DNA of 64,000 nt from Candidatus Parcubacteria bacterium (GTDB lineage: Bacteria > Patescibacteriota > Minisyncoccia > Phycocordibacterales > PALSA-1337), in assembly GCA_963766795.1 (NCBI GenBank), contig CAVYBN010000008.1, positions 32,696 to 96,695 on the forward strand, written 5' to 3'. Position 1 is the stretch's first letter. Every line of letters starts with the position of its first letter. The notes beneath the pieces are model-generated. The model was not told the DNA's origin. It worked only from the letters and a program-made list of their open reading frames with translations, and did no database searches. A program made the position numbers and the translations under genes. Of the stretch, positions 4,363 to 60,975 are shown piece after piece.

Positions 4363-4450
4363 TGGGGATAGTTTACAGTGAAAAGGGCAAAGTGCAAAGT
4401 GACAGTCAGCTTAAAATTCTAGAAGCAACATCTCCTTTTCGTCAGAAAAT

Positions 4451-6916: not shown

Positions 6917-7495
6917 CTAGGAAGATTTCTTGTTGGCTTTCTTATTTGAATCCTTGGAAGCTTCCGCCTTTCCTTTAGGCCCATTCGAATCAGTCGTTCC
7001 CGCCTTCGGCCCGGTCCTCTCGGCAACGATCTTAGTCTTGGCCTTGGGCTTCACAAGCGTGACCGTACCACCAGCCTTTTCTATAGCAGCCTTGGCAGAT
7101 TCCGAGACGGCGCAACCCGAGACCTTGAATGATTTGGTGAGCGCATCACCGCCGAGGATCTTGACCTCGAGGATGCGGCCTGACAGCGTCGAGACAATGC
7201 CCTTCTCTGCGAGGATAGCCGGGTTGATCATGTCGCCCGAAGCGAAGGCGTTCTCGAGCAGATCCAAACCTACCGGGATCGGCCTCTTATAGAAAGAGAT
7301 GTTGGAATTCTTGCCGCGGCCGCGGAGCTTCGGAAGCTTCTTGATGATGTCGCGCCATTCCGGGCGGCGCTTGTTGCCGGCGCGGGCAGTCTGACCCTTG
7401 CCGCCGCGGCCGGAGGTCTTGCCGCGCTTGCCGCCGCGGGCGACGATCATGCGTTTGGTATTGGGGTGATTGCGTTGTAATTGATTGGTTTGCAT
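6917..7495 (-). CDS. rplO: 50S ribosomal protein L15 with Lys/Ala-rich C-terminal extension
   Basis: GGKRGKTSGRGGKGQTARAG motif. It follows rpsE directly, with no rpmD between them. Confidence 0.9.
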   Translation of the reverse strand: MQTNQLQRNHPNTKRMIVARGGKRGKTSGRGGKGQTARAGNKRRPEWRDIIKKLPKLRGRGKNSNISFYKRPIPVGLDLLENAFASGDMINPAILAEKGIVSTLSGRILEVKILGGDALTKSFKVSGCAVSESAKAAIEKAGGTVTLVKPKAKTKIVAERTGPKAGTTDSNGPKGKAEASKDSNKKANKKSS

Positions 7496-7636
7496 GATGA
7501 TTAGAATTCAAAACTCAAATCACAAATTCCAGAGAAGCTCCAGAATTCAAATTCCAAAGGATCATCCCTATTCTTTGAGATTTGAATTTTGGGATTTATC
7601 TGGGATTTGGATTTTGAAATTTGGATTTTCATATTA
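7496..7636. repeat. Heptad-word hairpin spacer, family A
   Basis: The core tcaaatcacaaattccagagaagctccagaattcaaat opposes tttgaattttgggatttatctgggatttggattttgaaatttgg. It fills the whole rpsE-rplO gap. Confidence 0.8.
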
Positions 7637-8794: not shown

Positions 8795-8922
8795 GATAGT
8801 AAATTCAAAAGGCAAAAGGCAAAAGGCAAAATTGAAATTCAAAATTTAAAATTGAATTTGCGACAGAACTTTTGACTTTTGACTTTAACTTTTGCATTTT
8901 GATTTTTGAATTTTGACTTATA
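8795..8922. repeat. Heptad-word hairpin spacer, family B
   Basis: The left arm, (aaaggca)x3 then aaattga aattcaa aatttaa, opposes ttttgac ttttgac tttaac ttttgca ttttgat. Near-identical copy at 13285-13404. Confidence 0.8.
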
Positions 8923-9456
8923 TTACGCCGCCTTTTTGCCTTGCTTTCTCCTGATGATCTCGTCAGAGTAACGCACTCCTTTACCCAGGTACGGCTCCGG
9001 CTTCTTCTTGGAACGGATCTCGGCGGCGAACTGCCCGACCTTCTCGCAATCGATGCCCGTAACAGTTATGCCAGTCTTGTCCGAGACGACTTTCAAGTCA
9101 GCCGGGATCGGCATGACGACCGGATGCGAGAAGCCGAGCGCCATGACCAGATCCTTGCCTTTGACGTCGGCCTTGAAGCCGATGCCTTCGACGATCAGCT
9201 TCTTCTCGTAAGCCTTGTTGACGCCGGCGATCATGTTCTTGATATGCGAAACATAGGTGCCGAGTAGGACCGGCGTCTCGGGAGCTTCATGGGCGGCGGT
9301 CGAGAGTGACCAAGCCGGGCTCGATCGTGACCTTCACGTTCGGGCGAAAGGCTTTCGAAAGCGTGCCGAGCGGGCCTTTGACAGTCAGCGTGCCAGCCGA
9401 ATATGTGACTTCGGTCTTGGCCGGTATGACGATGGGTTTTTTGGCGAGTCTTGACA
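8923..9456 (-). CDS. rplF: 50S ribosomal protein L6, with a single frame break near 9298-9310
   Basis: The N-terminal part MSRLAKKPIVIPAKTEV...EPGLVTL (from ATG 9456) stops prematurely. The rest (TAAHEAPETPVLLGTYVSHIKNMIAGV...) continues in the +1 frame as ORF 8923-9234. Confidence 0.8.
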
Positions 9457-9602
9457 TAGTAATTAAATTCCAGATTTCAAATCACAAATTCCAGAGAAGC
9501 TCCAGAATTCAAATCTCAAAACATCCTTCAAATTCCTTGAAATTTGGACTTTGGAATTTTTCTGTAATTTGGACTTTGAATTTTGGATTTTCATGATAGT
9601 GA
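9457..9602. repeat. Heptad-word hairpin spacer, family A
   Basis: Same core as 7496-7636 (tcaaatcacaaattccagagaagctccagaattcaaat). Confidence 0.8.
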
Positions 9603-9998
9603 TTACCAGATTTTGAACAATACCTCTCCCCCGACCTTATGCTTCCTGGCTTCCGCGCCGGTCAAGATCCCCTTTGGCGTCGAAAGGATGATGTCGCCGA
9701 AACCGCTCTTATATGTGCGGATATCGGAGACGCGCTGGTATATGCGGCGCGAGGGCTTGGAGACGCGTTCGAGATCGTGGATGCGCGCGCCGTTCGTGCC
9801 ATAGACCATGGCGACTTCGAGGGTCTTCCCGACGATCTCCTTGCCTTTCTTCTCAATGGCGGCGACATAGCCGGCTTTCTTCAAGGCGTGGACGACATTG
9901 TCGGCGAATTTCGTGTACGGGATGGTCACGACCGCCTTGCGCGCGTTGGAACCGTTCTTGAGACGGGTGACGAGATCGGAGATTGGGTCGGTAATCAT
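9603..9998 (-). CDS. rpsH: 30S ribosomal protein S8
   Basis: MITDPISDLVTRLKNG...; operon position. Confidence 0.95.
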   Translation of the reverse strand: MITDPISDLVTRLKNGSNARKAVVTIPYTKFADNVVHALKKAGYVAAIEKKGKEIVGKTLEVAMVYGTNGARIHDLERVSKPSRRIYQRVSDIRTYKSGFGDIILSTPKGILTGAEARKHKVGGEVLFKIW

Positions 9999-10143
9999 GG
10001 TAATTAGATCTCAAATTTCAAATCACAAATTCCAGAGAAGCTCCGGAATTCAAATCCAAAAACATCATCCCCATTCCTTGAAATTTGGAACTTGGAATTT
10101 TTCTGTAATTTGGATTTTGGAATTTGGAATTTCATATTGTTCG
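9999..10143. repeat. Heptad-word hairpin spacer, family A
   Basis: Same core as 7496-7636 and 9457-9602. Confidence 0.8.
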
Positions 10144-10329
10144 TTACCACGATGACTTCTTAATTCCCGGTATGGCTCCCTCATTCGCGAATTCACGGAA
10201 GCAGATGCGGCAGAGATCAAAATCGCGCATATAGCCGTGCTTGCGTCCGCAACGGAAACAACGCCGAACCACGCGCGACTTGAATTTCGGCTTCCTTTTC
10301 GACCTGACGATGACTGATGTTTTTGCCAT
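10144..10329 (-). CDS. rpsN: 30S ribosomal protein S14 type Z (zinc-binding)
   Basis: 61 aa with CFRCGR...CRIC. Confidence 0.9.
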
Positions 10330-10598
10330 AATGCAAATGGGATTGGTTAGCGCCGACAGGCCGCTTCCAATCGCTATTTCCCTGAAATACTTCGAAACTA
10401 CTGGGTATTTGAAGGTGTCCTGATACTAACAAAGAGGCAGGATGAAGTCAAATGCATCTGGTGCTTCGAGGAAACTGCGAGCCGGTTCGTCAAAACCGAC
10501 ATCGAATCCCTTCAGGAGAAATGGCGTGGGATGATGGCGAAGGAAGCGATGCTGGTAGTGGCCCTGGCGTAAAACCCTGACACTTCAAAATTTCAGGT

Positions 10599-10625
10599 AA
10601 GCCCGGTCTCAAAAAGGCCGGGCTT
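10599..10625 (+). terminator. GC hairpin (aagcccgg...ccgggctt) followed by a T-rich run
   Basis: An 8-bp GC stem with a 10-11-nt loop, abutting the left target duplication of the second IS. Confidence 0.35.
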
Positions 10626-10635
10626 CTTCATTTAT

Positions 10636-11673
10636 GGCTTAATGGTACTTTTGTGAGGCTGTGATGATACAATCAGCTTCTAGTAAAGCCATATTTAACA
10701 AATATTAATGAATATGCGTAAAAAAAACGATTTCTTGCCCAAATTGCGCTTCCAAAGCGGTAAAAAAGAACGGCCGGTTTAGAGGGATCCAGAGATACAA
10801 ATGCACCGGCTGTTCCGTTCAATTTCAGATATCAAAGAAAAGAGACCCGTCTCAGATCAGAAAGAAGCTCTGGTTTGATTTTTGTTTTCGATACGCGACC
10901 GTCGAGACGCTCACGGAGAAATACCGCAAGTCCGAGAAGTGGGTCCGCAATCAGCTCAAGCTCTACGAGCTTCCGGACGCGAAGCCAGTTCCTCGCGCCA
11001 TGGTCGCGGTCATGGACGCGAGCAAGGTCGGGAACGAGTGGATCTTCGTGGTACGCGATCCGCATACGAAAGAGAACGTGTACATGGAGACGATCCAATT
11101 TGAAAGCACGTTCTGCTACCAGACGGCGCTTCGGGAGCTGAAAGAGAAAGGTTTTACGATCAAAGCCATCGTGGGAGACGGAAAAGTGGCCGTATCGTGG
11201 CTTTTCAAGGGAATACCGTCGCAGATGTGCCACTTCCACCAGAAGCAGATCGTCGTGAGACGGATCACGCTCAACCCTCTCTTGCCAGCCGGCGTGGAGC
11301 TTCTGGCAATCGTGAATACCTTGACTGCGAGCACTGAAGCGGAATTCACCTTGAAGTTCAAGGAATGGTGCGAAAAGTGGGACGCGTTCTTGAAAGAAAA
11401 AAGCTTGAACGAAAAAACCGGAAGATACGCTTACACGCATCGGAAGCTTCGAGGCGCTCGAGACAGCATTAAAAGGCATTTGCCGAACCTGTTCACTTTT
11501 GAAAGATACCCGGAACTCCATATCCCGAACACCACGAATTCTCTTGACGGTTCATTCACCAAGATCAAGAACTCGATAGCCATTCACGCCGGGCTCGCGC
11601 GCGAACAGAAGATCAAAATGGTCAAAACATTGCTTGGAGGGAAAGTCTAGCCTCACAAAAGTACCATTAAGCC
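10636..11673 (+). mobile_element. Insertion sequence (1038 bp); family unresolved (zinc finger plus DDE, with an IS256/ISL3/IS1-like C-terminal signature)
   Basis: Perfect 24-bp terminal inverted repeats ggcttaatggtacttttgtgaggc and gcctcacaaaagtaccattaagcc. The 8-bp direct repeat tcatttat occurs at 10628-10635 and 11674-11681. Confidence 0.85.
10714..11650 (+). CDS. Transposase; the ATG (10714) is out of frame with the body across an A8 tract
   Basis: ATGCGT-A8 is followed, in the +1 frame, by TISCPNC...CTGC and then ORF 11000-11650 (MDASKVG, IVGDGK, TTNSLDGSFTKIKN). An A7 tract would be in frame. Confidence 0.7.
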
Positions 11674-12157: not shown

Positions 12158-12664
12158 TTACTTCCTGAAGAAATCTATGTCCTCGGCATATTTGTAATCG
12201 ACTATCTCAAATGGCTTAGAGAAAAACCATGGTGCCTCAAGATGGGTCTGGGTCACGATCTTATCAGTCGACCAGCTGCCAAACTCATCACAAATCTCTT
12301 TCAATAATATCTTTTGAGTCGGAGAAAATACGGCTTCATCCAGAGCGTTGGGATTCTTTATCTGGAAACGGATCATCTCTCCGTCTTTGTACGGCATAGA
12401 TTCAGTATCAATAGCTCCTTTTGTCTTCAACCCAGTCAGTATTTGATCCATGTGCGCGGGAACAGGGCCGTATTCCTGATGTACGTATACGTCGGCGCTG
12501 ACTGTTTTGGCCGTGTCTCTAAATGAAATGAAGTCCAGATAATACAGGAGCTTGTTAAGCTTGGTCTTGCCGAGGTATTGATTGTTACAGTATTTGATGA
12601 AATACAAAACTGCGCTTTCATATAAACGCTCATTGGGAAGCGGCTGGGATGCAGTCTTAGCCAT
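12158..12664 (-). CDS. DUF4065 (SocA/Panacea) antitoxin-domain protein
   Basis: KLNKLLYYLDFISF...YVHQEYGPVP matches the DUF4065 core pattern. Confidence 0.7.
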   Translation of the reverse strand: MAKTASQPLPNERLYESAVLYFIKYCNNQYLGKTKLNKLLYYLDFISFRDTAKTVSADVYVHQEYGPVPAHMDQILTGLKTKGAIDTESMPYKDGEMIRFQIKNPNALDEAVFSPTQKILLKEICDEFGSWSTDKIVTQTHLEAPWFFSKPFEIVDYKYAEDIDFFRK

Positions 12665-13284: not shown

Positions 13285-13404
13285 GGTAATTAAAGGCAAA
13301 AGGCAAAAGGCAAAATGCAAAATTGAAATTCAAAATTTAAAATTGAATCTGCGACGGAACTTTTGATTTTTGACTTTAACTTTTGCATTTTGATTTTTGA
13401 CTTT
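13285..13404. repeat. Heptad-word hairpin spacer, family B
   Basis: Near-identical to 8795-8922. Confidence 0.8.
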
Positions 13405-13623
13405 TTAATTAGTTTTTTTCACCTTCGACGCGTAGATCGGCATAGCTCTCTCGACGGTCTGACCTTTAGCGCCTTGCTGACGGGGTCGCTCATGCTTCTT
13501 GGTCATATTCACACCCTCGACCAATACTTTGCCGAGAGCCGGAAAAGCCTTGACGACCTTGGCGGTCTTGCCTTTGTCTTCGCCGGATAAGATTGTAACC
13601 GTGTCTCCTGTTTTGATATGCAT
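13405..13623 (-). CDS. rplX: 50S ribosomal protein L24
   Basis: KOW motif IKTGDTVTILSGEDKGK. Confidence 0.9.
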   Translation of the reverse strand: MHIKTGDTVTILSGEDKGKTAKVVKAFPALGKVLVEGVNMTKKHERPRQQGAKGQTVERAMPIYASKVKKTN

Positions 13624-13722
13624 GGTAGTGATTACTTTACTTAAATTGATTCAGGATTCAAGATTCATGATTCAGGAATTTTTGTGTTCTTCTTGAATCG
13701 TGAATCCTGAATCTTGAATCTC
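13624..13722. repeat. Heptad-word hairpin spacer, family D (gattcag/gattcaa words)
   Basis: gattcaggattcaagattcatgattcagg opposes cttgaatcgtgaatcctgaatcttgaatc. Confidence 0.8.
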
Positions 13723-14094: not shown

Positions 14095-14168
14095 GTTTTA
14101 CTTGAATCAAGATTCAAGATTCATGATTCAAGAGGTTTTTCTTGAATCCTGAATCCTGCATCCTGAAT
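14095..14168. repeat. Heptad-word hairpin spacer, family D
   Basis: cttgaatcaagattcaagattcatgattcaag opposes cttgaatcctgaatcctgcatcctgaatc. Confidence 0.8.
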
Positions 14169-14426
14169 CTATGCGATGATTTTAAACGCCTTCCTCTTCG
14201 AGATCGGCCGACAGGCCAGGACGGTGGCCTTGTCCCCTTCCTTCTTGGTGTTACCCGCATCATGCGCCATGATCTTGGTCTGCTTATTCTGATACTTGCC
14301 GTACTTCGAATGCTTGATGTAGCGCTTGACCAGGACGACGGCCGTGTCTTTCATCTTCGTCGAAACCACGACGCCGGTGAATGTCTGCGGCTTTGTGTTA
14401 TTCGCGGTTGTTTGGGCGGCTGTCAT
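14169..14426 (-). CDS. rpsQ: 30S ribosomal protein S17
   Basis: Operon position; FTGVVVSTKMKDTAVVLV. Confidence 0.9.
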   Translation of the reverse strand: MTAAQTTANNTKPQTFTGVVVSTKMKDTAVVLVKRYIKHSKYGKYQNKQTKIMAHDAGNTKKEGDKATVLACRPISKRKAFKIIA

Positions 14427-18559: not shown

Positions 18560-18682
18560 GATATTAAATGCAAAGTGCAAAGTGCAAAGTGCAAAGTTTC
18601 AATTCAAAACTTGAAATTAGATTCGTGCTGGAACATTTGACTTTTGCGTTGAAGTTTTGCATTTTGAGTTATGAGTTTTGAC
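18560..18682. repeat. Heptad-word hairpin spacer, family C
   Basis: The left arm, aaatgca then (aagtgca)x3, opposes ttttgcgttgaagttttgcattttgag. Confidence 0.8.
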
Positions 18683-19033
18683 TTACTTCTTCGTAGAAGC
18701 AGTTTCAGCTGCAGCCTTCGCGGCTTGGGCCGAAGCGACCTCGGCTTCCTTGGCCTTGAGCTCGATCTCCTTCTGCATCTTGCCGCCGTGGCGCACGAAT
18801 TTGCGCGTGGGCGAGAATTCACCGAGGCGGTGTCCTACCATGTCCTCGGTGACCAGCACGTCTATATGCATCTTGCCGTTGTGGACCCCGAAGGTGAAGC
18901 CTACCATCTCCGGAGAGATCTGCGAGCGGCGCGCCCACGTCTTGATAGACGCGGTGGTGGCAGGCTTTTTGCCGGCGATCTTTTTGAGGAGGTTCGCTTC
19001 GACGTACGGGCCCTTTTTGAGCGATCGTGCCAT
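18683..19033 (-). CDS. rpsS: 30S ribosomal protein S19 with Ala/Lys-rich C-terminal extension
   Basis: [11 protein letters not shown]...GHRLGEF. Confidence 0.95.
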
Positions 19034-20553: not shown

Positions 20554-21429
20554 TTACCGCGGCTTATCCACCCGGCCTTGATCGTCTTTCTCGATCATGT
20601 CTTTTGCGTATTTTATGAGATAGCCGTACAAAGGCTCGCCTTCTTTGACGAAGGTATCGAGGAGCGCGAACCTAAGATCGAGATATTCATGGACGAGAAG
20701 ATTCCTCATGTCGGAAAAACGGGCGATCTTGGAAGCGACGCTCTCGTCGAATCCGTCCAAAAACGCCAGCTCTTTCAGTATCGCTTTGTAGGTCTGTGGT
20801 ATAGGCCTTTTTCTTGAAGCAATCAATATCTTCCCGATATCGATCGAGGCGTTGGCGAGAGTCTCGGCCCAACGCTCGAGGTTGCGCTTGACGGAGATAT
20901 CCCTCTCGTATTCTTTTTGAGACATTCCTGCAAACTTTTTGAAATCCGGCATCTGATCTTGGACAAAATCGATCAACCTCTCGAGCCTGACTCTGTCGTT
21001 CGCCGACAATGATCTTGAGCGTTCTTTTATCTTCACGAAGTCAGAGATAAAATACCTGAAATCATCCGCCAGATCATTCACGGCAGCCGATAATCTGGAA
21101 AGAAGCCCTTCGTCGGCTGAAAAGACCTTATTCCCCTCCTCGATGACGGCGGAGAACAGCGTTGATGGAGCGCGATTCAAGACGACCATGTCCGTCTGTC
21201 GTCCAGTCAGACGCTCCAAGTCGCTCCCGATATCGTCCTCGCCGGGATAACGATTCTCTGATTCGTATTCCAGTGCCTTGGTTCCGGGCCTGAAATATAC
21301 CCCGATATCGACATCGGATTCGCCGTGAGAAGTGCCTTTGGCGACTGAACCAAACAGATACGCGAAAGCTACATCCGTCCGTCCGCGGAAATATTCTCGC
21401 AATTTGGCGATCAGAGCATCTTTGTCCAT
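20554..21429 (-). CDS. Fused minimal nucleotidyltransferase (MNT) and HEPN/DUF86 protein
   Basis: The N-terminus has LFGSVAKG...SDVDIGV (pol-beta NTase GS...DxD). The C-terminus has RNLLVHEY (the R-x4-H HEPN motif). Confidence 0.65.
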   Translation of the reverse strand: MDKDALIAKLREYFRGRTDVAFAYLFGSVAKGTSHGESDVDIGVYFRPGTKALEYESENRYPGEDDIGSDLERLTGRQTDMVVLNRAPSTLFSAVIEEGNKVFSADEGLLSRLSAAVNDLADDFRYFISDFVKIKERSRSLSANDRVRLERLIDFVQDQMPDFKKFAGMSQKEYERDISVKRNLERWAETLANASIDIGKILIASRKRPIPQTYKAILKELAFLDGFDESVASKIARFSDMRNLLVHEYLDLRFALLDTFVKEGEPLYGYLIKYAKDMIEKDDQGRVDKPR

Positions 21430-22772: not shown

Positions 22773-23810
22773 TCAACTCATCGATGCAATCCTCAACTTG
22801 TGACCATTACCGTGGCTTATCAGACCGAGGTACGACTGTATAACTTCGGACTTGCCTTCGCTGTCCTTTAATCTTCTGAACATCCTACGCTTTGTGGCTG
22901 TCCTCAATACTCGATGGTCGGGAAAATTGACCCAACCGAGATAGTCGACGCCAGAAGCTATGGTACTGATCGATATTTTATTGGGGTGAAGTTGGAGCTT
23001 TAATCTGTCAGATAAGAATACTCGGATAAGAGGCAGAACCGAACACAACCATTCTCTATCAGATGACAAGATGACAAAATCGTCGGCATATCTTATATAG
23101 TATCTGGCTTTCAGTGAATGCTTCACGAATTGCTCGAATTCGTTCATGTAGATGTTCACGAATAATTGCGAGGTCAGATTGCCTAGGGGCAAGCCGACCC
23201 CTTTTCCCGTCGAAGAAAAGCTGTGAATGATTTCGGAGATCAATACGAGAATATCTTTGTCCGGAATGTATTCAGCCAAGATTGCAAGCAGCGTCGCCTG
23301 ATCAATCGAAGCGAAGAATTTACGTATGTCGCATTTGAGCACCCAAGCCGTTTTGGTGTGATTTAGGGTCACTTTATATGCAAATGAGCGGAATCGATTT
23401 ACAGCCTTATGCGTTCCTTTTTCAAGCCTGCACGACGAGGAATCCGACACGAATGTCCTGTCGAAGAATGGATACAGCATTCTATAGACGGCATGGTGAA
23501 TTAATCGATCTCGTACGGCGGCTTTATGGATATCCCTTTCCTTTGGATCGTGGATCCTGAAGAATTCATATGGCGAATGCTTGTAACTTTTAGTCGCCAG
23601 ATCGTCGTGAAGATAAATGATGTTAGCCATGAGGTCGCGTTCGAATTCTTGGACATCCTTGCGAGAGCGTTTTCCTCTTACGAATTCTTTCCATGCGGCA
23701 AGCAGATTTTCAAGCGAGATGATATCATGATACGCATGTTTGAATCGGATCCGTCGCAGACAATGAAGACCCCCCCCCCACGCAATTTTGCCGGTTTTGA
23801 CCAAGGTCAA
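22773..23810 (-). CDS. Diversity-generating retroelement reverse transcriptase
   Basis: LPLGNLTSQLFVNIYMNEF (the DGR-type GxxxSQ motif) and YIRYADDFVIL (YxDD). A TR/VR pair lies adjacent. Confidence 0.85.
   Translation of the reverse strand: MTLVKTGKIAWGGGLHCLRRIRFKHAYHDIISLENLLAAWKEFVRGKRSRKDVQEFERDLMANIIYLHDDLATKSYKHSPYEFFRIHDPKERDIHKAAVRDRLIHHAVYRMLYPFFDRTFVSDSSSCRLEKGTHKAVNRFRSFAYKVTLNHTKTAWVLKCDIRKFFASIDQATLLAILAEYIPDKDILVLISEIIHSFSSTGKGVGLPLGNLTSQLFVNIYMNEFEQFVKHSLKARYYIRYADDFVILSSDREWLCSVLPLIRVFLSDRLKLQLHPNKISISTIASGVDYLGWVNFPDHRVLRTATKRRMFRRLKDSEGKSEVIQSYLGLISHGNGHKLRIASMS
23770..23779. repeat. C10/G10 homopolymer in the overlapping 5' ends of the RT and avd-like genes
   Basis: Ten consecutive C on the + strand. 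They encode WGGG in the RT frame and separate ATG 23763 from the avd-like frame by 1 nt. Confidence 0.9.
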
Positions 23811-24150
23811 AGACGCTTATCTGTTGTGGCATGGATTTTATAGAGAATTACCAAAATTTCACAGGAATTCTTTCGGGTTTCGCGTTGACTCATTGTTCGT
23901 TGAGATCATCGAGGCGATCGCGGCCGCCGGTTTCCTGTCGCCGCAGGAGAAGCATCCGTATGTACGCGTCGCCATACGCAAGCTCGACGCTCTCAAGGTA
24001 TTACTGATGATCCTCTGGGAAGCCAAGTCGCTCGACGACAAGAAGTATATCGCATTGTCAGTGAAGCTCGATGAGATCGGCAGAGATCTTGGCGGCTGGA
24101 ACGGAAAGCTAACAAAACAAAACTCCCCCGCCAAAGCAGGAGAGAAATGA
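23788..24150 (+). CDS. avd: Avd-like four-helix-bundle protein (DGR accessory variability determinant family)
   Basis: Helical heptad pattern with PKFHRNSFGFRV and C-terminal KLDEIGRDLGGWNGKL. It lies on the strand opposite to the RT, TR and target. It has only a TTG start as sequenced. Confidence 0.6.
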   Translation: MPVLTKVKDAYLLWHGFYRELPKFHRNSFGFRVDSLFVEIIEAIAAAGFLSPQEKHPYVRVAIRKLDALKVLLMILWEAKSLDDKKYIALSVKLDEIGRDLGGWNGKLTKQNSPAKAGEK

Positions 24151-24156
24151 AGTGAG

Positions 24157-24253
24157 TTGCGAGGCCGGCGAACCACCAGTTGTCGTTCCAGTCGTTGTCG
24201 TTCCGGTTGACGTTCACGTTGCGCTCGTCATCGTTCCAACGGTTGAAGGCGGC
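24157..24253 (-). repeat. DGR template repeat (TR)
   Basis: The 97 bp are 81/97 identical to 24608-24704. All 16 differences fall at TR adenines on the - strand. The TR reads as an AAC-rich frame (NRWNDDERNVNVNRNDNDWNDNWWFAGLA). Confidence 0.85.
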
Positions 24254-24525
24254 CGATATGTGCAAAGTGCCATCCATGCCACCACCCCTCGAATCCTCAG
24301 TTGGCGGATCTCGGGGTTGAATCGTATTCGGCATCGTAATGCCCTAGCACTCTGCACCAAGTAGCTTCATTTTTTGAAGTGTCTGCATGCGCCCTCTGTC
24401 TGAAGCCGTGACCGCTGATCGCTCTCAGCGCATGGATACTGGATTCGGCCGCAGGAAGCCCGAAGATTTAATGGCCGCCCGCATGATTCGCCTACTACCG
24501 AGATCATTGTAGCATGACGAAAATG

Positions 24526-24551
24526 CTCCGCGCTTTTGTAAAAGCGCGGAG
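24526..24551 (-). terminator. Rho-independent terminator after the DGR target gene
   Basis: ctccgcgctttt-gt-aaaagcgcggag forms a perfect 12-bp stem, followed on the - strand by cattttcg. Confidence 0.6.
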
Positions 24552-24602
24552 CAAGGGCAAAGGCCAAAGTGCACAGAGTGCAAAGTGACCAAGGCTTGAG
24601 AG

Positions 24603-25244
24603 CTAACTTGCGAGGCCGGCGAACCACCAGAAGTCGAGCCAGTCGTGGTCGTCCCGGCGGACGCCCACGACGCGCCCGTCACCGCTCCAACGGATGAAGG
24701 CGGCATAGCACCACTTGCCACTGGAATCCTTCCAGTGAGTGGCGTTGGGACGCTCGTCGGCAAACTCCGGATCATCTTCATTTACCTTGGCGAGAGAATA
24801 CGGATCGGCGGGTTTGAGACCGCGCAATAAGTATTGCTTTTCCAAGTCATCGTCGCTGATCCAGCCATTCTCGTTGTACGCATACGCATCAGGCTTGAAG
24901 AAGACCACCTTGGCTTCCCCGCCGGTGCCCTTCGGCATGGCGGCAACGACATCTTTGTCGGTGTATTGCTTCCGGCCGGTAGCGGTCAGAGCCTGCTCTG
25001 GAGTCAGGCTACGATTAACACTAACGAGTCTGACGATCATGTTGACGAAGCGCTCGACATATCCGCGAAAGACCGCGAACATGTCTGGAACTAATTCCTT
25101 GGAACCGAGCGCTTGTTGAACAGCATCTTTGTTGAATTCCGGACAGTGTTTTTCGAGAAGCGCCCGGAAATTACCGACAGCCTTGTTGATTTGATCGGCG
25201 GTAACGGTTTCTGATTCTGCTGATGGGGTCATGGTTTTATTCAT
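24603..25244 (-). CDS. DGR target protein with a C-terminal variable region (putative C-type-lectin-like fold)
   Basis: The C-terminal residues ...AAFIRWSGDGRVVGVRRDDHDWLDFWWFAGLAS are encoded by the VR. Confidence 0.75.
   Translation of the reverse strand: MNKTMTPSAESETVTADQINKAVGNFRALLEKHCPEFNKDAVQQALGSKELVPDMFAVFRGYVERFVNMIVRLVSVNRSLTPEQALTATGRKQYTDKDVVAAMPKGTGGEAKVVFFKPDAYAYNENGWISDDDLEKQYLLRGLKPADPYSLAKVNEDDPEFADERPNATHWKDSSGKWCYAAFIRWSGDGRVVGVRRDDHDWLDFWWFAGLAS
24608..24704 (-). repeat. DGR variable repeat (VR)
   Basis: Counterpart of the TR. Its 3' 23 nt (ctggtggttcgccggcctcgcaa) are identical to the TR, resembling an IMH. Confidence 0.85.
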
Positions 25245-25375: not shown

Positions 25376-26614
25376 CTATTCATATCTCAACGCCTCTATC
25401 GGGCTCTTCTTGGAAGCCTGACGGGCCGGATAGCCGCCGAAGATGAGGCCGATCGCGGCCGAGACGAAGAAGCCGAGGGCCGCGCCGCTCCACGGGAAGA
25501 CGAAGGTCCAATTCACGCCGAGACCTTGCGACAGCACCAATGCGATGATGAACGCCAATCCTGCTCCGAGGACGATGCCGACCACGCCGCCGATGACCGT
25601 CAGGAGGACGGCTTCGAGCAGGAATTGCGAGAGGATGTCGCGCTCGCGCGCGCCCAGAGCCTTGCGCAGACCGATCTCGCGGGTGCGCTCGGTCACCGAG
25701 ACCAGCATGATGTTCATGATGCCGACGCCGCCGACGAAGAGCGCGATCGAGGCCACGGCCACAAGGAAATAGGTGAGCGCGCTGGTGATAGTCGAGAGGC
25801 GGTTGGCCAGGTCCTGCTGAGTCTGGACAGTGAAATCGTCCTTGGTCGGATCAGTGATGTTGTGCGATTCCTCGAGGGTGAGCCGGATATCAGCGGCCGC
25901 CACCGGCACGACTGCGTCGGAGGTAGCCTGGATGATCAGGCGGTTAAAATATTTCTGGCCGGTGACATAGGTCATCACCGTCGTATAAGGCATGATGACC
26001 ATGCCGTCGAAATTGAAGAGCGATCCGCCGCCGGACTTCGCCAAGACGGCGACCACACGGAAGTTGCGGCCTTTGATCTTGATCTGCTGATTCAGAGGAT
26101 CCTGTGTATCGAAAAGATGAGTGGCGACGTCAGCGCCGATGACTGCGATATTGGCGAATGATGAGACATCGCTCGAATCGAAGAATACGCCTTCAGTCGG
26201 CTGGAGATCGAAGATACTGGCCATGAGGTCGGTGCCTCCGAAGATCGAGACTTGGTAATCATTAGAGCCGTACGAGGCGCTCGAGGCGCCGATGACCGTC
26301 GGCATGATCGACTGGAGATCCGGCACATTGGCCTTATTCTGGAGAGCTGTGAGGTCTTTCGGCTTCAATGAATCGCTGTAAAGAGCGCTCACGTCCGTCG
26401 GACCGGTCGGCTCCCTGCCGGGAATGATCGCGATGGTATTCGTGCCGAGCCCTTGGACTTCGCCCAGGATGAGATTCTGTGCACCGGCTCCCAGGGATAC
26501 CACCAGCATGATGGCGGTGATGCCTATCACGATGCCCAGAATGGTCAGGAACGACCGCGAGCGGTTGGTGGTCAGGCCGGTCAGAGAGGTTTTGAGAAGG
26601 TGGCGGTAGGTCAT
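25376..26614 (-). CDS. MacB-like ABC transporter permease (FtsX domain)
   Basis: 412 aa with an N-terminal TM helix, a periplasmic domain, and a C-terminal FtsX-type 3-TM bundle (REIGLRKALGA). Confidence 0.85.
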   Translation of the reverse strand: MTYRHLLKTSLTGLTTNRSRSFLTILGIVIGITAIMLVVSLGAGAQNLILGEVQGLGTNTIAIIPGREPTGPTDVSALYSDSLKPKDLTALQNKANVPDLQSIMPTVIGASSASYGSNDYQVSIFGGTDLMASIFDLQPTEGVFFDSSDVSSFANIAVIGADVATHLFDTQDPLNQQIKIKGRNFRVVAVLAKSGGGSLFNFDGMVIMPYTTVMTYVTGQKYFNRLIIQATSDAVVPVAAADIRLTLEESHNITDPTKDDFTVQTQQDLANRLSTITSALTYFLVAVASIALFVGGVGIMNIMLVSVTERTREIGLRKALGARERDILSQFLLEAVLLTVIGGVVGIVLGAGLAFIIALVLSQGLGVNWTFVFPWSGAALGFFVSAAIGLIFGGYPARQASKKSPIEALRYE

Positions 26615-26620
26615 GGGGTA

Positions 26621-27045
26621 AGTTCAAAAGTTAAAACTCAAAATGCAAAACTTATCATTTGGACTTCAATGTGATAATGCTCTTGCCAAGCATTCTGGAA
26701 ATCTCATCCGTCTCGGCAATAAGCAGATTAATCTTATCAGACGGACCAAGTTTGCTCATTTTAAGCAAGCTTAACCAATACATGGATTCATGCGCGCTTT
26801 TGAGAGCAATCTCATAATATCTTTTGAACTCCAATCTGGAACTGCTAGATTTTGCTTCAGTTATGTTTGCCCCGATTGACATCGATGAGCGAAGCAACTG
26901 ATCAGTAATGATCCAAACTGCTCTTTTATTCGGCAAGTTTCTGCACAGATCGATTACGTTCAAACTCAATACAAAAGCCCTTGCTTTGACGTCTGTTTTG
27001 AGTTTTTCATTTAAGTTTTGCATTTTGAGTTTTGACTTTTGAATT
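26621..27045. repeat. Hairpin-bracketed cassette: 34-bp inverted arms (32/34 match) enclosing one ORF
   Basis: Arm 26621-26654 is agttcaaaagttaaaactcaaaatgcaaaactta. The reverse complement of arm 27012-27045 is aattcaaaagtcaaaactcaaaatgcaaaactta. Confidence 0.85.
26655..27023 (-). CDS. Four-helix-bundle protein of the 23S rRNA intervening-sequence (IVS)/Avd superfamily
   Basis: NLPNKRAVWIITDQLLRSSMSIGANITEAKSSSSRLEFKRYYEIALKSAHES matches the IVS-protein pattern. The ATG lies inside the right arm. Confidence 0.7.
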   Translation of the reverse strand: MQNLNEKLKTDVKARAFVLSLNVIDLCRNLPNKRAVWIITDQLLRSSMSIGANITEAKSSSSRLEFKRYYEIALKSAHESMYWLSLLKMSKLGPSDKINLLIAETDEISRMLGKSIITLKSK

Positions 27046-27763
27046 ATTTTTTGAACTCATCATTGGCCGTCAGCCTATTCTTGACCTTCATGTCGCTCTC
27101 TACACGGCCGTCCATGAGGTGGATGATGCGCTCGGCATGCTCGGCCGTGACGGTCTCGTGGGTGATGAGGACGATGGTCTTGCCGTGCTCCTGATTCAGG
27201 CGCTGGATGATGCCCATGACGTTCTTGCCGGACTTGCTGTCGAGGTTGCCGGTCGGCTCGTCGGCGAAGATGACCTCCGGGTCGTTGACCAGGGCGCGCG
27301 CGATGGCCACGCGCTGGCGCTCGCCGCCCGAAAGCTCTGCTTGCTTGTGATACATGCGATGGCCCAAACCGACCGATTCGACGGCTTTCATGGCGCGCTC
27401 GTCCCATTCGCGTTCGGAAACGTCGGAGTACACGAGGGGCAGCTTGACGTTATCAAGTACGGAAGTGCGCGAGAGCAGGTTGAAAGACTGGAAGATGAAG
27501 CCGAGCTCGCGATTGCGCAGGTCGGCCAGCTCATTCCCCGTGAACGAAGTGACATTCTTGCCGTTGAAATGGTAGCTGCCGGAAGTCGGCACATCCAAAA
27601 GTCCCAGCAAATGGAGCAATGTCGATTTGCCGGAGCCGGACGGTCCCATGATGGCCAGGAATTCGCCTTTTCTCACGTCGAACGAAACGCCATTCAAAGC
27701 GACAGTCTTGGTATCGCCTTCCTGATAGGATTTGTGCAGGTTTTTGACGGAGATGATGTTCAT
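27044..27763 (-). CDS. ABC transporter ATP-binding protein (MacB/LolD type)
   Basis: Walker [10 protein letters not shown], signature LSGGERQR and Walker [13 protein letters not shown]. Start set at MNIISVK (ATG 27763). Confidence 0.9.
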
Positions 27764-28842
27764 AAAAAAATTAAAACTCAAAATTCAAAAGTCAAAACTT
27801 CGGAAGCAGACCTTTGATACCGTCGGCAAACAAAGTATATGCCCTCACGAATGAGTCGTCGACATGGGCGTACAGGATCCCCTCTCCGGGCCCAGTCTCG
27901 ACGAATTGGCTGGCGAAGGTGATCGTCTTGGCTTCGCTGTCTTGAATGAGCGGCTCCGGCGACACCCAGTCGATTTTGCCTTTTTCATAGTCGTATATGA
28001 ATAAGCCGACGGAGAACGTGCCGTATTTGATCTTGCCGTTGATCTTTTGATTCGCTTCGCGGCCATTCATGATTCCCAGCAATTTGTTTTCGCCGACGTC
28101 GATAAAAGATTTCGGCAACAGCGGCCCCGGCGAGGCATGACCGCCGATCCAGGGGATCCCATGCTCTTTTGGATGGAAGACTGTCTCGCCGAATTTCCAC
28201 GGTTTGCCCATGTCTTCGGCAATCGCGATTTTGACTATCGAATAAGTATCATCGGGCCTTCGATCGCGGGATTCAATCAAATTAAATCTGATACCGTTTG
28301 AATTCATTGGAGGGATTGAGACCTCTTTTGCGCTTTCATCGGCAACTCCCTTATCCAAAAGCGCCGGCATCGTCATCTCTAACGAATCGATGCTTTTTCC
28401 AAATGCGTGGCCAAGGTGAATCTTGATCTTTTCCGTATCTTTCGGAGGCTTTATCGGGATAGTGAAGTAAATGTGCGTCAGCCCAGTCTTGCCATCAATG
28501 AAAATATCGGGATCTTCAAGTCCGATGAAATCCCAGCCTTTCTCCGTAAGAGAGCCGATCACCTTATCCTCATTTTTAATTTGTAGCCGCTCACCGATCT
28601 CAAACAGCTCCAATGACTCGCCGGTGAACAAATGGAGCTCGCTTCGATCAAGATTGCCTTTTACCCCGATTTCGCCGCTTCTAGAAGTGATGCAACGGAT
28701 GATGCCTCTGGGAATCTTTGAGGATGGATCCAAAGTCACCGCCATGACATGTTTGAAACGGCCGTCGGCCGCGACCACTTTGCCGGCATGTTGTATATAT
28801 GCGGCGTCATTTTGACTTTTGCCTTTTGAATTTTGCATTTAC
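27764..28842. repeat. Second hairpin-bracketed cassette (same word family, one heptad indel between arms) enclosing one ORF
   Basis: The left arm aaaactcaaaattcaaaagtcaaaactt opposes the reverse complement of the right arm, aaatgcaaaattcaaaaggcaaaagtcaaaatg. The ORF start and stop both fall inside the arms. Confidence 0.7.
27792..28838 (-). CDS. Beta-propeller glycosidase/phosphorylase-like protein (GH130/DUF377-like, tentative)
   Basis: GLEDPDIFIDGKTGLTHIYFT resembles the G-x-EDPR motif. 348 aa. It is inserted between the adaptor and ATPase genes of the macAB-like operon. Confidence 0.35.
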   Translation of the reverse strand: MQNSKGKSQNDAAYIQHAGKVVAADGRFKHVMAVTLDPSSKIPRGIIRCITSRSGEIGVKGNLDRSELHLFTGESLELFEIGERLQIKNEDKVIGSLTEKGWDFIGLEDPDIFIDGKTGLTHIYFTIPIKPPKDTEKIKIHLGHAFGKSIDSLEMTMPALLDKGVADESAKEVSIPPMNSNGIRFNLIESRDRRPDDTYSIVKIAIAEDMGKPWKFGETVFHPKEHGIPWIGGHASPGPLLPKSFIDVGENKLLGIMNGREANQKINGKIKYGTFSVGLFIYDYEKGKIDWVSPEPLIQDSEAKTITFASQFVETGPGEGILYAHVDDSFVRAYTLFADGIKGLLPKF

Positions 28843-30360
28843 TTCACGTAAGTGACGACCTTATCTCCCGGATTGAGTCCCGAGACGATCTCGATCGTGC
28901 CGTCGGAGCCCTTAAGGCCGGTTACGACGGGAACAACCGAATAGGTTTTACCGTCAAGGCTTACCACGCGCACGGTCGTCGAAGTGGCCGTCGAAGTCAG
29001 GGCACGATAAGGGATCTCTATCACGCCATCTGCCTCATGCGTGTGGATCTCCAGATTGGCAGTCATGCCTGGACGGATGCGGCTGTCTGGCGACACGAAC
29101 GCCAGCGTGACTTTATAGGTCGGCACGCCTTCGAGGACGGTCTCGGCCGGGTCGATCATGGCCACGCGCTCGGGGAAATCGACGTATGAGCCGTAGGCGT
29201 CGAGCGTGCTCAGAAGCCAGATCTCCGACGGCGACCTTGGCGATGTCGGCCTCCGGGACGAAGGCTTCCACCTTGAATCCGCCGCTCTCTACCGCGAAGC
29301 CGGACTGGCCCGGCGCGGCGTATTCGCCGGCATTCGGGTCTTCCTGCGTGACGATGCCGTCGATCGGCGAGCGCAAAGTGTCTTCGTCGAGCAAAGCCTG
29401 TGCCTGCGCGACCTTGGCGGCTTGCGCGGCGACCGATTGCGAGGAATCCCCTGAAAGCTTGAGATTGTAATTCGAGACGGCTTGATCGTATGCCGATCGG
29501 GCGGCGGAAAGCTCGCTCTGGGCGGCAGTCACGGAATCGACGGCCGTATTCAAGGCGGTCATGCCGGAATTCATGGCGGCCACATAAGCATTGATGGCAG
29601 ACTGCGTCAGACCGGAATTGCCGGGGTTCAAGGCGTTGACTATGGGGGCAAGGCCGCTCATGAATGCCTTCATCGTCAAGAGATAGCCGTGGGCATCGCC
29701 GATGATCCCGGTGGCGTTGCTTGTAGAAGCGCTCACGAGCTCGGCCGACCAGCCGTTCAATACGTCAGTGATCAAGACCCGTTCGGAATCTATGGAATTC
29801 TGCTGGACGGACGATTCGGTCCTCACATTGATGGTCGGATTGGCGCTCTGTGGATTGGTGAATAAGGAATCCGCGTAGTTGACGATCGCGCCTTGGGCTT
29901 TGACATAGCCGTCGTGGAAAGCGTTGACCGCGTCTTTCATGGCGTTGTCCAGAGAGGCTTTGGCCGTGGCGAGGCTGGCTTGTTGCACCGCCAATTCCTG
30001 CGGCGAGAGGCTGCGCGACATGTCAGCCAATGTGGCCTGCGCGCTTGCCAGAGCCGCCCGGTCATTGGCATTGTCGAGCGAGGCGATAGGATCGCCGGCT
30101 CTGACGGCATCGCTGACTTTGACGTAGATCTTGGTGATGACTCCGCCCTTCTCGAAAGACAGGCTGGCCTTGCCGACCGGAGAGACGGTGCCGGTCACGG
30201 AGACCGTCTCGACGACATTGCCGAGCGCCGCCTGCGTCCATTCGAATGCCGGCGCCGTGCCGCCTCGGCGGTACCAGACGAATATGACTATGATCACGAC
30301 TATAGCGATCGTCGTAAGCACCCACTTATTCTTGAGATGTCGCCAACGAGATTTCTTCAT
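28839..30360 (-). CDS. MacA/HlyD-family periplasmic adaptor, with a frame break near 29205-29218
   Basis: ORF 29113-30360 has an N-terminal TM helix, coiled coil and RSPIDGIV lipoyl motif. It continues in another frame as ORF 28839-29165 (VAMIDPAETVLEGVPTYKV...). Confidence 0.75.
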
Positions 30361-30476
30361 GTTTCAATGATTATTATAGCCGCAAGCGAGGGTGCGTGGC
30401 AACTAGTTGACACGGCATCCGAGCGCAGCGGATATATGAGCGAAGCGAATATAGCACGAATCGGAGCAGGCGCGGC

Positions 30477-30637
30477 AAAATCTCAAAATTCAAATCACAA
30501 ATTCCAGAAAAATCTCAGAATTCAAATCTCAAAGGACATGTGTCATTTGATCACTGGAATTTGGAGCTTTTCTGGAATTTGAATTCTGGGATTTGGAGCT
30601 TTTTTAGAAATTAAGTAATTAGGTCAATTAGAAATTT
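30477..30637. repeat. Heptad-word hairpin spacer, family A, with an extra outer arm
   Basis: tcaaatcacaaattccagaaaaatctcagaattcaaat opposes ggaatttggagcttttctggaatttgaatt. The outer arm aattaggtcaattagaaatt resembles 60745-60975. Confidence 0.75.
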
Positions 30638-30768: not shown

Positions 30769-31623
30769 CTAATCGCCCTTCCTCATCAGCCTGCCGGGCT
30801 CGCGGCGAGAGATGACGAAGACGTTGGAATATTTCTTGGGAGTGCGCGTCTTCTGGCCCTTGCCGGCCGGCTTGCCCCAGCGGGTCTTCAAACGGCGCAA
30901 GCCGCGGCCCTGGCGCTGTTCACCGCCGCCGTACGGATGGTCGACGGGATTCTGGGCGGTGCCGCGCACGGTCGGACGGATCCCCATCCAGCGGGAGCGG
31001 CCGGCCTTGCCGATGACGACCAGGCGATTTTCCTCATTAGAAACGGCGCCTACGCTCGCCCACGCGTCCTGGTGGACTTTGCGGACTTCGGTCGAAGGCA
31101 TCTTGATGTGCGTATAGCCGGCGTCGTTAGCGACGACCTGGGCGAAGGAACCAGCCGAACGCACCAGCTTGGCTCCGGAACCGGGCTTGATCTCGATGTT
31201 ATAGATGAAAGTGCCGACCGGGATATTCTTCAAAGGCAGGCGATTGCCGGCTTCGATCGGGGCTTTTTCAGATACGATGAATGAGCTGCCGACCTTCAAG
31301 GTCTTCGGCAGGAGGACATAGCGCTTGGCGCCGTCCTTGTAAGCGACCAGGCCGATGTAGCCGGTGCGGAAAGGATCGTATTCGACGGTCTGGACATATG
31401 CCGGGATATCGCGCTTCTCGTATAGGAAATCTATCTCGCGGTAGAGCTTCTTGTGTCCGGCGCCTTTGTGGCGGACGGTGACGCGGCCGTGCGCGTTCCT
31501 GCCGACGTCGCGCTTGAAGCCGGAGGTCAGCGGCTTGTACGGTTCAGAGGCAGTCAGATACTGCTTGAACGGCAAAGTCGTCATGTGACGGCGGGATTTT
31601 GATGTTGGTCGGTATGATTTCAT
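30769..31623 (-). CDS. rplB: 50S ribosomal protein L2
   Basis: 284 aa; GRNAHGRVTVRHKGAGHKK and VDHPYGGGEQR. Confidence 0.95.
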   Translation of the reverse strand: MKSYRPTSKSRRHMTTLPFKQYLTASEPYKPLTSGFKRDVGRNAHGRVTVRHKGAGHKKLYREIDFLYEKRDIPAYVQTVEYDPFRTGYIGLVAYKDGAKRYVLLPKTLKVGSSFIVSEKAPIEAGNRLPLKNIPVGTFIYNIEIKPGSGAKLVRSAGSFAQVVANDAGYTHIKMPSTEVRKVHQDAWASVGAVSNEENRLVVIGKAGRSRWMGIRPTVRGTAQNPVDHPYGGGEQRQGRGLRRLKTRWGKPAGKGQKTRTPKKYSNVFVISRREPGRLMRKGD

Positions 31624-57674: not shown

Positions 57675-57792
57675 AATTCAAATCACAAATTCCAGAAAAG
57701 CTCCAAATTCCAGTAATCAAATGCTGTATGAATTCTGAAGTTTGGATTTTGTGATTTTTCTGGAATTTGGATTTTGAAATTTGGATTTTTCC
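57668..57792. repeat. Heptad-word hairpin spacer, family A
   Basis: tcaaatcacaaattccagaaaagctccaaattcc opposes ggattttgtgatttttctggaatttggattttgaaatttgg. Confidence 0.8.
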
Positions 57793-60744: not shown

Positions 60745-60975
60745 TAAGAATTTCTAATTGACCTAATTAATCTAATTCCTAAATAAATCCCAAATCCCAA
60801 AAATCAAGCTCCAGAAAAATTCCAAATTACAATAATCAAAATCGCAAATCTTATTTTGGAATTTGAATTTTGAGATTTCTCTGGAATCTGTGACTTGAAT
60901 TTTGAGATTTTAATTGGTAATTGGGATTTTCTTAGGTCAATTAGATCAATTAGAAATTAGGTCAATTCCAATCGT
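60745..60975. repeat. Heptad-word hairpin spacer, family A, with additional outer arms (about 230 nt)
   Basis: The outer arm aatttctaattgacctaattaatc opposes ggtcaattagatcaattagaaatt. The inner arms are of the family A type. Confidence 0.75.

Follow-up and report, generated by a model that had tools for sequence, protein, structure and literature searches.

What are the two genes that stand, each between a pair of inverted repeats, inside a transporter operon of Candidatus Parcubacteria? The operon is macAB-like and lies in a 64,000-nt stretch of contig CAVYBN010000008.1, which was analysed as a whole and is called the window below (positions are those of the window unless a locus is named). 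In the initial annotation of this DNA, the operon was read as adaptor, ATPase and permease genes with one further open reading frame (ORF) in the loop of a hairpin at each of the two internal junctions, and the arrangement was likened to the intervening sequences (IVSs) of 23S rRNA. The observation was confirmed overall, and the order and identities of the transporter genes hold by Pfam analysis. On the minus strand, the operon begins with the gene of an HlyD-type membrane-fusion adaptor (28839 to 30360; HlyD_3, HlyD_D23 and CusB_dom_1), followed by an ORF of 348 aa (orf348, 27792 to 28838), the gene of a MacB-type ABC ATPase (27044 to 27763; ABC_tran, E = 2.7e-34) and a gene of 122 aa for an IVS protein (IVP, 26655 to 27023), and it ends with the gene of a MacB_PCD/FtsX-type permease (25376 to 26614; MacB_PCD and FtsX). 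The IVP gene with its arms (26621 to 27045) is referred to as cassette 1 and orf348 with its arms (27764 to 28840) as cassette 2. We are confident that cassette 1 is an IVS-type element.

The 5' arm of cassette 1, named arm C (27012 to 27045, minus strand; AAUUCAAAAGUCAAAACUCAAAAUGCAAAACUUA), and its 3' arm, named arm D (26621 to 26654, minus strand), are complementary at 32 of 34 positions, as was initially annotated; the repeat finder returned them as 27012-27043 and 26623-26654, with 32 nt and 97% complementarity. The inverted-repeat score of the flanks was 59, compared with 16.3±2.4 for 100 dinucleotide shuffles (z = 17.7). Arm C starts at the stop codon of the ATPase gene and includes the IVP start codon (27021-27023), while arm D extends from the IVP stop codon to a point 6 nt short of the permease ATG. 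Measured between the outer ends of its arms, the cassette is 425 nt long, with 4-5 heptads of the unit CAAAAnn in each arm, and arm C is a 34-nt periodic run of 4.9 heptads. Each arm of the two cassettes consists of about four heptads of the type TTTTGAN. [quoted passage not shown] Cassette 1 is located between the ABC ATPase and permease genes, outside any 23S or 16S rRNA gene. No second intact IVP copy was found within the 64-kb window, and an exact-sequence look-up of both cargo proteins yielded no record. Rfam scanning of the arms and the window at gathering and permissive thresholds yielded no family, only a chance match to a lncRNA (E = 0.41).

To describe the pairing of the arms, we computed the folds of a 456-nt RNA covering cassette 1 and of a 2.28-kb transcript running from the end of the adaptor gene to the start of the permease gene. 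In the 456-nt fold, the terminal stem was observed in both the minimum free energy (MFE) and the centroid structures (MFE -135.7 kcal/mol, z = -7.2), and in the 2.28-kb fold the stem formed by arms C and D persisted with 31 pairs. The duplex energy was -38.1 kcal/mol for arms C and D, -24.6 kcal/mol for the arms of cassette 2 (5' arm A and 3' arm B), and -21.6 and -16.5 kcal/mol for the crossed pairs C-B and A-D, respectively.

These features are similar to those of the IVS of Coxiella burnetii, which is 428 nt long, is located in helix 45 of the 23S rRNA and carries an S23p (PF05635) ORF; its inverted repeats at the two termini pair into a 28-bp stem, 3-4 tandem GACAGAT heptamers stand directly before the ATG, and the first heptamer is where RNase III cleaves within the stem (PMC4990558). 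Cassette 1 and the Coxiella IVS share the protein family, a long stem (about 32 bp and about 28 bp, respectively), heptamer arms, a length of about 430 nt and an ORF in the sense orientation, and their fold energies are comparable (-136 and -143 kcal/mol, respectively). They differ in that the host transcript of cassette 1 is a protein-coding operon (ATPase-permease junction) whereas that of the Coxiella IVS is 23S rRNA, in the heptad unit (CAAAAnn versus GACAGAT), and in the ORF, which is under strong purifying selection in cassette 1 (dN/dS 0.05) but reportedly decaying in the Coxiella IVS. Moreover, cleavage by RNase III has been demonstrated for the Coxiella IVS, whereas cassette 1 offers a candidate substrate, a near-perfect stem of about 32 bp. 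The analogy with 23S IVSs drawn in the initial annotation is strongly supported for cassette 1 with respect to family, stem, heptamers and size. As a qualification, the arms of cassette 2 are not intrinsic to orf348 (see below). IVSs are also known from Leptospira, and their mobility was proposed by Ralph and McClelland 1993, as cited in PMC4990558. The rRNA elements have been known for more than 30 years, with their origin, their mobility and the role of the conserved ORF unresolved (PMC4990558), and IVP ORFs inside rRNA insertions of the candidate phyla radiation (CPR) were reported earlier (PMC11270868). No description of IVS-type elements in mRNA operons was found in the literature, the coverage of which was incomplete, especially for subscription journals.

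If cassette 1 is an insertion, related operons without it should exist. We scanned for the permease in one genome per species and obtained 80 loci (L001-L080). The closest loci (L001-L012), which belong to Paceibacteria, Taylorbacteria and other CPR bacteria, have the adaptor, ATPase and permease genes tightly packed, with junctions of 0-61 nt, and contain no IVP gene, no orf348 and no heptad hairpin; in these loci and in locus L088, the ATPase-permease junction is 0-27 nt long and hairpin-free. In the metagenome contigs L081-L084, an IVP gene 83% identical to that of the window occupies the same ATPase-permease junction and is bracketed by heptad arms (54 nt, 74%). The ATPase orthologues in L001-L003 and L081 show 72-75% identity. 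At the adaptor-ATPase junction of L081, the site held by orf348 in the window, there is a heptad hairpin without any ORF (arms of 30 nt, 87%; loop of 107 nt). Empty-site operons, to which the initial annotation had pointed, thus exist both as tight, hairpin-free junctions and as an ORF-less hairpin.

The same junctions hold other inserts elsewhere. The insert in a macAB-like junction of the P0003 contig is a metallophosphatase gene, and that in L088 is a gene of 453 aa adjoining orf348. In L015 (positions 6339-6747; CPR), a small GIY-YIG gene stands at the ATPase-permease junction in a perfect hairpin of 19-24 nt, the arms of which contain ACCGAGCACTCAATTTATT; arms and cargo are unlike those of the window, but the layout is alike. 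In L041 (5680-8000), repeats of another family bracket a gene of 362 aa at the adaptor-ATPase junction and recur past the ATPase gene. L039 (Saccharibacteria; 9220-11480) harbours two distant four-helix-bundle genes downstream of permease genes, each with heptad arms of its own, TATCCTT heptads for one gene and arms containing AGTTATCAAG for the other.

To see how far the arms accompany the protein family, the IVP was used in a metagenome scan, from which 50 loci with 35-73% identity were obtained; 47 of them were testable for arms. Significance was judged against 100 dinucleotide shuffles and against 948 control ORFs from L001-L080, each 150 aa or longer. A null based on mismatched arm pairs was rejected as inflated, since the arms from different loci are alike. 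Flanking inverted repeats scoring above all 100 shuffles were found in 33 of the 47 PF05635 loci, with z up to 17, and only 7 of the 948 control ORFs (0.7%) reached a score of 28. The arms have a median length of 33 nt, and the elements measure 413-565 nt on the outside. In 32 loci the base autocorrelation of the arms was 0.67 at lags 7 and 14; the remaining lags gave 0.22-0.46, and the ORF itself about 0.24. The number of heptads per 5' arm ranged from 2.3 to 5.7 with a median of 3.7. The heptad units are mostly (C/T/G)AAAAG(T/C); GCAATGA, AAAGATA and AATTTTT also occur.

The elements are situated at gene boundaries. In 27 of 32 loci, an ORF on the same strand has its end within -14 to +9 nt of the 5' arm, and in 26 of 32 an ORF on that strand begins -1 to +37 nt past the 3' arm. 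The host junctions identified by Pfam include nuoF-nuoG, sdhC-sdhA, LexA-methylase and large secreted protein-MurJ; one element lies between two tRNA genes (Rfam), and another junction resembles atpG-atpD, as judged by eye from the flanking sequence, Pfam not confirming it. None of the 40 homologue loci scanned with Rfam is located in rRNA, no relative of the IVP was detected in a scan of viral contigs, and no transposase was associated with any of about 50 loci. As a qualification of the locus-based description, the arms belong to the genes of the PF05635 family, across phyla, and not to the macAB-like operon. Cassette 1 belongs to a widespread class at junctions of co-directional genes, and this family-wide pattern appears to be undescribed.

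The dN/dS of the IVP gene was 0.04-0.08, and 0.05 in comparison with the L081 orthologue, which indicates strong purifying selection. Between the window and L081, the synonymous sites of the IVP gene are saturated (pS 0.71), yet the arms of the window are still 97% complementary; it follows that the arms are under active maintenance, whether through selection or through concerted evolution. Cognate arm pairs had a mean score of 42.8, compared with 28.0 for non-cognate pairs, and the cognate arm ranked first in 10 of 30 loci and among the top four in 24 of 30. Since cognate arms pair better than foreign ones, the two arms of an element co-vary.

Hairpins of the same family without an ORF occur in the S10/spc ribosomal-protein operon, which is encoded on the minus strand of the window and has long heptad hairpins at many of its junctions. 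One of them (8796 to 8925, minus strand) lies at the rplR-rplF (L18-L6) junction, and a second (13286 to 13416, minus strand) lies directly upstream of rplE (L5) and is a close paralogue of the first, with the loop shared too. Both can be aligned with the IVP element from its 5' arm through the ATG into the first IVP-like codons, the hairpin at 8796-8925 keeping the 5' arm, the start motif ATGCAAAA and heptads like the first IVP codons. At the rpsS-rplV (S19-L22) junction, a 5' arm stands as an orphan together with about 10 IVP-like codons (18625 to 18690, minus strand); it contains the exact motif TCAAAATGCAAAA, and a stretch of it, TCAAAATGCAAAACTTCAAC, matches the element of L094 at 20 of 20 positions; judging from its sequence, this site is probably the remnant of a decayed element. 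The 13-mer TCAAAATGCAAAA occurs exactly five times in the window, three of them at ORF-less sites, and 11 sites of the window match it within one mismatch, compared with 0.23 expected. Because the ORF-less hairpins keep the IVP start motif, descent from an ORF-bearing element is suggested, and the ORF-less copies look like internally deleted descendants of such elements. In size and form, the hairpins at 8796-8925 and 13286-13416 are like the short ORF-less 23S IVSs of Salmonella, Yersinia and others (about 80-150 nt, removed by RNase III), and they relate to the ORF-bearing element as short 23S IVSs do to long ones. Unlike the short 23S IVSs, they lie between ribosomal-protein genes in mRNA and retain the IVP start motif.

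Further repeats were noticed in the window. On each side of the rplN (L14) gene (13644-13722 and 14103-14172) there is a complete hairpin belonging to a third heptad family, the units of which are of the GGATTCA type. A second dispersed hairpin family with the core TTTGAATTCTGGAGCTTCTCTGGAATTTGTGATTTGAATTTTGA is found at 7480-7620, 9480-9620, 9990-10150, 30460-30560, 57640-57720 and 60830-60900, most copies being at ribosomal-protein gene junctions. At 56487-56534, four exact TTTTGAC heptads stand in a run, with two more close by, inside the mechanically called ORF 55530-57674 (minus strand), which may be over-extended across an intergenic arm.

As for cassette 2, its 5' arm, arm A (28810 to 28840, minus strand), found by the inverted-repeat search, reads in RNA sense as the heptads UGCAAAA, UUCAAAA, GGCAAAA and GUCAAAA, and its 3' arm, arm B (27764 to 27800, minus strand), found by the repeat search, as UUUUGAC, UUUUGAA, UUUUGAG and UUUUAAU. 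The arms annotated initially at this junction were recovered as 27773-27797 and 28810-28834, with 25 nt and 88% complementarity, and they do enclose 27792-28838 and pair in a second register 7 nt off, but they are weaker than those of cassette 1. Arm A begins right after the adaptor stop codon and includes the ATG of orf348 (28836-28838), and arm B supplies the orf348 stop codon and ends just ahead of the ATPase start; as a result, the first ~10 residues, the last 2 residues and the stop codon of orf348 are arm-encoded. It was also borne out that the IVP gene and orf348 both start as ATGCAAAA inside an arm. A 22-nt run in arm A, TCAAAAGGCAAAAGTCAAAATG, has an exact counterpart in the 5' arm of the L099 PF05635 element, and its canonical ATG is not in the frame of orf348. 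Such a layout agrees with a hairpin of the IVP type, the loop of which now holds another gene.

The orf348 family comprises 1139 homologues in Paceibacteria, the best 120 being 66-85% identical. In homologues compared, the N-terminal extension is present only in the window, P0002 and P0007. The initial annotation had called orf348 GH130/DUF377-like. In the AlphaFold model (pLDDT 81) it is a GH130-like five-bladed beta-propeller, and the top Foldseek matches are all GH130 (4udk, 1vkd, 5ayd and 9fj8), with E down to 7e-12 against GH130 mannoside phosphorylases and TM scores of 0.60-0.69 overall and 0.63-0.69 for the matches with the best E; the identity to these structures is 14-16%, and no sequence match was obtained in Pfam (PF04041 included), NCBIfam, PADLOC or a PDB profile search. 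The modelled structure thus supports the GH130 likeness at the level of fold only. In close relatives of the window, the homologues of orf348 are located between the adaptor and ATPase genes, whereas in the distant genomes L085-L087 they stand alone, in unrelated contexts and without heptad arms. The homologue in L088 has the same 5' arm before the gene and no 3' arm, and on the P0003 contig, according to the gene calls, orf348 starts 4 nt past the adaptor gene and overlaps the ATPase start, leaving no space for arms. Since homologues stand without arms or with a 5' arm only, the arms are not a property of orf348, and the possibility that they belong to this gene was rejected. In the initial annotation, related genes without flanking arms were to count against its reading; 33 of 47 PF05635 loci do have such arms, and homologues of orf348 stand without them.

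Taken together, the best explanation of the whole is, in our opinion, that 26621-27045 is an IVS-type element in an mRNA operon with a stem that would be cut by RNase III and that cassette 2 is a derivative hairpin; we consider it reasonably probable. The element would be an insertion placed precisely where the macB-like ATPase gene ends with its stop codon and the permease gene starts. Co-transcription with the operon is probable, since the element has the same orientation and lacks an evident promoter. The arms of the transcript should, according to the predicted folds, pair into a stem of ~32 bp in which the IVP start codon is buried. Such a near-perfect stem is a duplex of the type cleaved by RNase III, and by analogy with the rRNA IVSs it would be cut by this enzyme. 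Cutting would free the IVP segment and part the ATPase and permease messages, with both host reading frames left intact. For cassette 2, the best reading is that of a hairpin derived from this family that carries a different cargo, a GH130-like cellular gene, in the loop instead of an IVP gene and has a decaying stem; the cargo may have been acquired, or may have replaced an IVP gene. The initial interpretation as a whole is thereby partly supported.

Several points weigh against this explanation. Both co-transcription and cleavage by RNase III are steps that we infer, the latter by analogy, and cutting of the stem would detach the permease message from the operon, which looks costly. No significant arm pair was found in 14 of the 47 homologue loci. 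Among the arm mismatches on the sense strand, G·U and A·C are equally frequent (32 versus 32 overall, 15 versus 13 internal); selection at the RNA level is thus not demonstrated, and a DNA-level constraint fits equally well. The conserved 7-nt periodicity goes beyond what a stem alone accounts for. For cassette 2, the pairing on which the initial annotation relied is lost in the minimum-energy fold of the whole 2.28-kb transcript, from which the stem of arms A and B is absent, and the locus with a 5' arm only (L088) and the one in which the gene calls leave no space for arms (P0003) are compatible with either order of events (gene into hairpin or arms around gene).

The equal numbers of G·U and A·C mismatches are what a strand-symmetric DNA constraint predicts, and they speak for another explanation, in which the arms are DNA-level terminal inverted repeats (TIRs) of a small mobile cassette with cargo, resembling a miniature inverted-repeat transposable element (MITE) and mobilised by a transposase or recombinase that acts in trans, or else with the aid of the IVP, the RNA hairpin being a by-product. 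MITEs and the Correia elements of Neisseria are small TIR-bounded intergenic repeats, and their transcribed hairpins are cut by RNase III. The cassettes are like them in the inverted termini, the multi-copy ORF-less forms, the insertion at gene boundaries within transcription units and the long predicted double-stranded RNA stem. Presence or absence at exact gene boundaries, several paralogous ORF-less copies at different junctions of the window (two of them closely similar, loop included), termini of the form TAAG...CTTA at many loci, co-varying cognate arms, other bracketed inserts at the same junctions in other CPR genomes (the GIY-YIG gene of L015 and the 362-aa gene of L041) and the mobility proposed for IVSs (mentioned above as cited in PMC4990558) agree with it as well. 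On the other hand, cassette 1 differs from MITEs and Correia elements in having a conserved non-transposase ORF and heptad-periodic arms, and no cognate transposase was identified in the ~50 loci. When the filled and empty sites were inspected, no target-site duplication could be seen, the exact element ends being uncertain. The insertion shared by the window and L081 is old, as seen from the saturated dS, and orthologous rather than recent; a single intact IVP copy exists in 64 kb, and no homologue is found on viral contigs. PF05635 proteins are not known to have a catalytic activity. We therefore regard DNA-level mobility as the account of the arms as rather unlikely, and it and RNA processing are not mutually exclusive. 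No transposase gene lies in or near the cassettes as far as the window is concerned, in which an IS1595-family transposase gene is found at 4471-5394 (minus strand) within an element at 4440-5430 having perfect 31-bp TIRs, AGAGGTATCCCCGCACGGCCTAATTTGCTGA, unrelated to the heptad arms. Integron cassettes were also considered, since they too are promoter-less single-ORF units in a co-oriented array with imperfect palindromes. However, attC is one complete palindrome 3' of each cassette, whereas the arms of the window are split to either side of the ORF and have no attC-like R/L core; this candidate was rejected for the split palindromes and because no integrase was found among the scanned ORFs, which cover part of the window.

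The 7-nt periodicity leads to a further possibility, namely that the tandem heptamers are binding sites, operator or packaging signals in RNA or DNA, of the oligomeric four-helix-bundle protein, which would autoregulate or protect the element, with pairing being secondary. The S23p of Xanthomonas is a homopentamer, as cited in PMC4990558. The periodicity is kept while the unit varies (CAAAAGT, GCAATGA, AAAGATA and TATCCTT; GACAGAT in Coxiella), the arms hold 2.3-5.7 units with a median of 3.7, the related Avd proteins of diversity-generating retroelements (DGRs) are binders of nucleic acid and of reverse transcriptase (PMC10053308), and the IVP is under strong purifying selection. We nevertheless consider it quite improbable, for the units in one arm differ at 1-3 positions, the complementarity of the arms, which protein sites alone do not require, is specifically maintained, and ORF-less copies persist without the protein gene. 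Finally, the heptads might be generic intergenic hairpins of the repetitive extragenic palindrome (REP), terminator or mRNA stabiliser type and the enclosed genes ordinary operon members, so that the cargo-in-loop arrangement would be illusory. The heptad word family of the four arms is indeed abundant in the window (26 matches versus 0.3 expected), with full hairpins at many ribosomal-protein gene junctions. The ATPase gene, too, is flanked in the opposite sense by arms C and B with a score of 54, i.e., bracketed equally well, because all four arms are of one heptad family; and the homologues of orf348 elsewhere are armless. Against this, relatives have the same operon without hairpins and without both genes, and the cargo junctions each hold one hairpin half on either side of the gene, while other sites have both halves side by side. 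Moreover, arms are associated with PF05635 across unrelated lineages with different units, compared with 0.7% of control ORFs, the ORF-less hairpins carry the IVP start codon and N-terminal sequence, and the PF05635 genes of the census are largely armed in genomes without other heptad hairpins. These observations make generic hairpins a highly improbable explanation.

The Avd proteins of DGRs have a four-helix-bundle fold homologous to that of the IVP, and a DGR is located in the window at 22773-25244, about 3 kb from the IVP gene. It comprises a reverse transcriptase gene (22773-23810, minus strand), an Avd-like four-helix-bundle gene (23788-24150, plus strand; NF033474 match with E = 9e-13, under the cut-off) and an Asn-rich template-like stretch at about 24140-24260 (NVNVNRNDNDWNDNWWFAGL), which matches the C-terminus of a 213-aa target ORF at 24603-25244 (GVRRDDHDWLDFWWFAGLAS). 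Unlike DGR Avd, the IVP has no adjacent reverse transcriptase or pair of template and variable repeats, and its match is to TIGR02436 rather than to the DGR Avd model. We rejected a connection of the IVP gene with the DGR, since the DGR has an Avd-type gene of its own and none of the census loci needs a reverse transcriptase nearby.

With respect to the surroundings, the S10/spc operon (6900-34000 of the window, minus strand) is interrupted by blocks of inserted genes. About 11 kb separates rpsS (18683-19033) from rplB (30769-31623), and this block contains the macAB-like operon, the DGR, a fused MNT/HepT gene (20554-21429) and a 462-aa ORF of unknown nature. A SocA/Panacea gene (12158-12664) lies between rpsH and rplE, and a DUF3800 gene and an ORF of 415 aa lie between rplN and rpsC. 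The adjacency of rplB and the adaptor gene is common to the window, L001, L088 and the P0003 contig. The adaptor gene of the window is broken by a frameshift near 29165-29210 into the ORFs 29113-30360 and 28839-29165, while the adaptor of the relatives is one intact protein of 506-509 aa; the change of frame reflects either a pseudogene or an assembly error.

It is tempting to speculate, although we think it unlikely and offer it tentatively, that PF05635 elements are cross-phylum, transcript-embedded cassettes that colonise the junctions of strongly expressed operons (rRNA, tRNA, ribosomal-protein, nuo, sdh, atp and transporter), with an RNase III-cleavable heptad stem as insulation, arms read by their own oligomeric protein, loss or exchange of cargo (the GH130-like gene being a case) and possibly mobility through an RNA intermediate with reverse transcriptase in trans. 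If this were true, the cassettes would be a natural system for inserting genes into essential operons. The rRNA IVSs are one habitat of a much broader class of elements, because the same architecture is found at ordinary operon junctions (CPR; nuoF-nuoG, sdh, atp and tRNA loci). The copies at operon junctions, with their intact and constrained ORFs, provide many independent cases for the role of the heptad arms and the four-helix-bundle protein, and the nuoF-IVP-nuoG arrangement, if present in a culturable organism, would be a system for studying RNase III dependence, protein binding and mobility. For annotation, the finding accounts for a common class of small genes labelled 'four helix bundle protein', together with the repeats that flank them, and it flags arm-encoded N-terminal extensions, e.g., the beginning of orf348. 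For the biology of CPR bacteria, it adds to the view that essential operons such as S10/spc, as well as the macAB-like operon, are heavily colonised by inserted genes.

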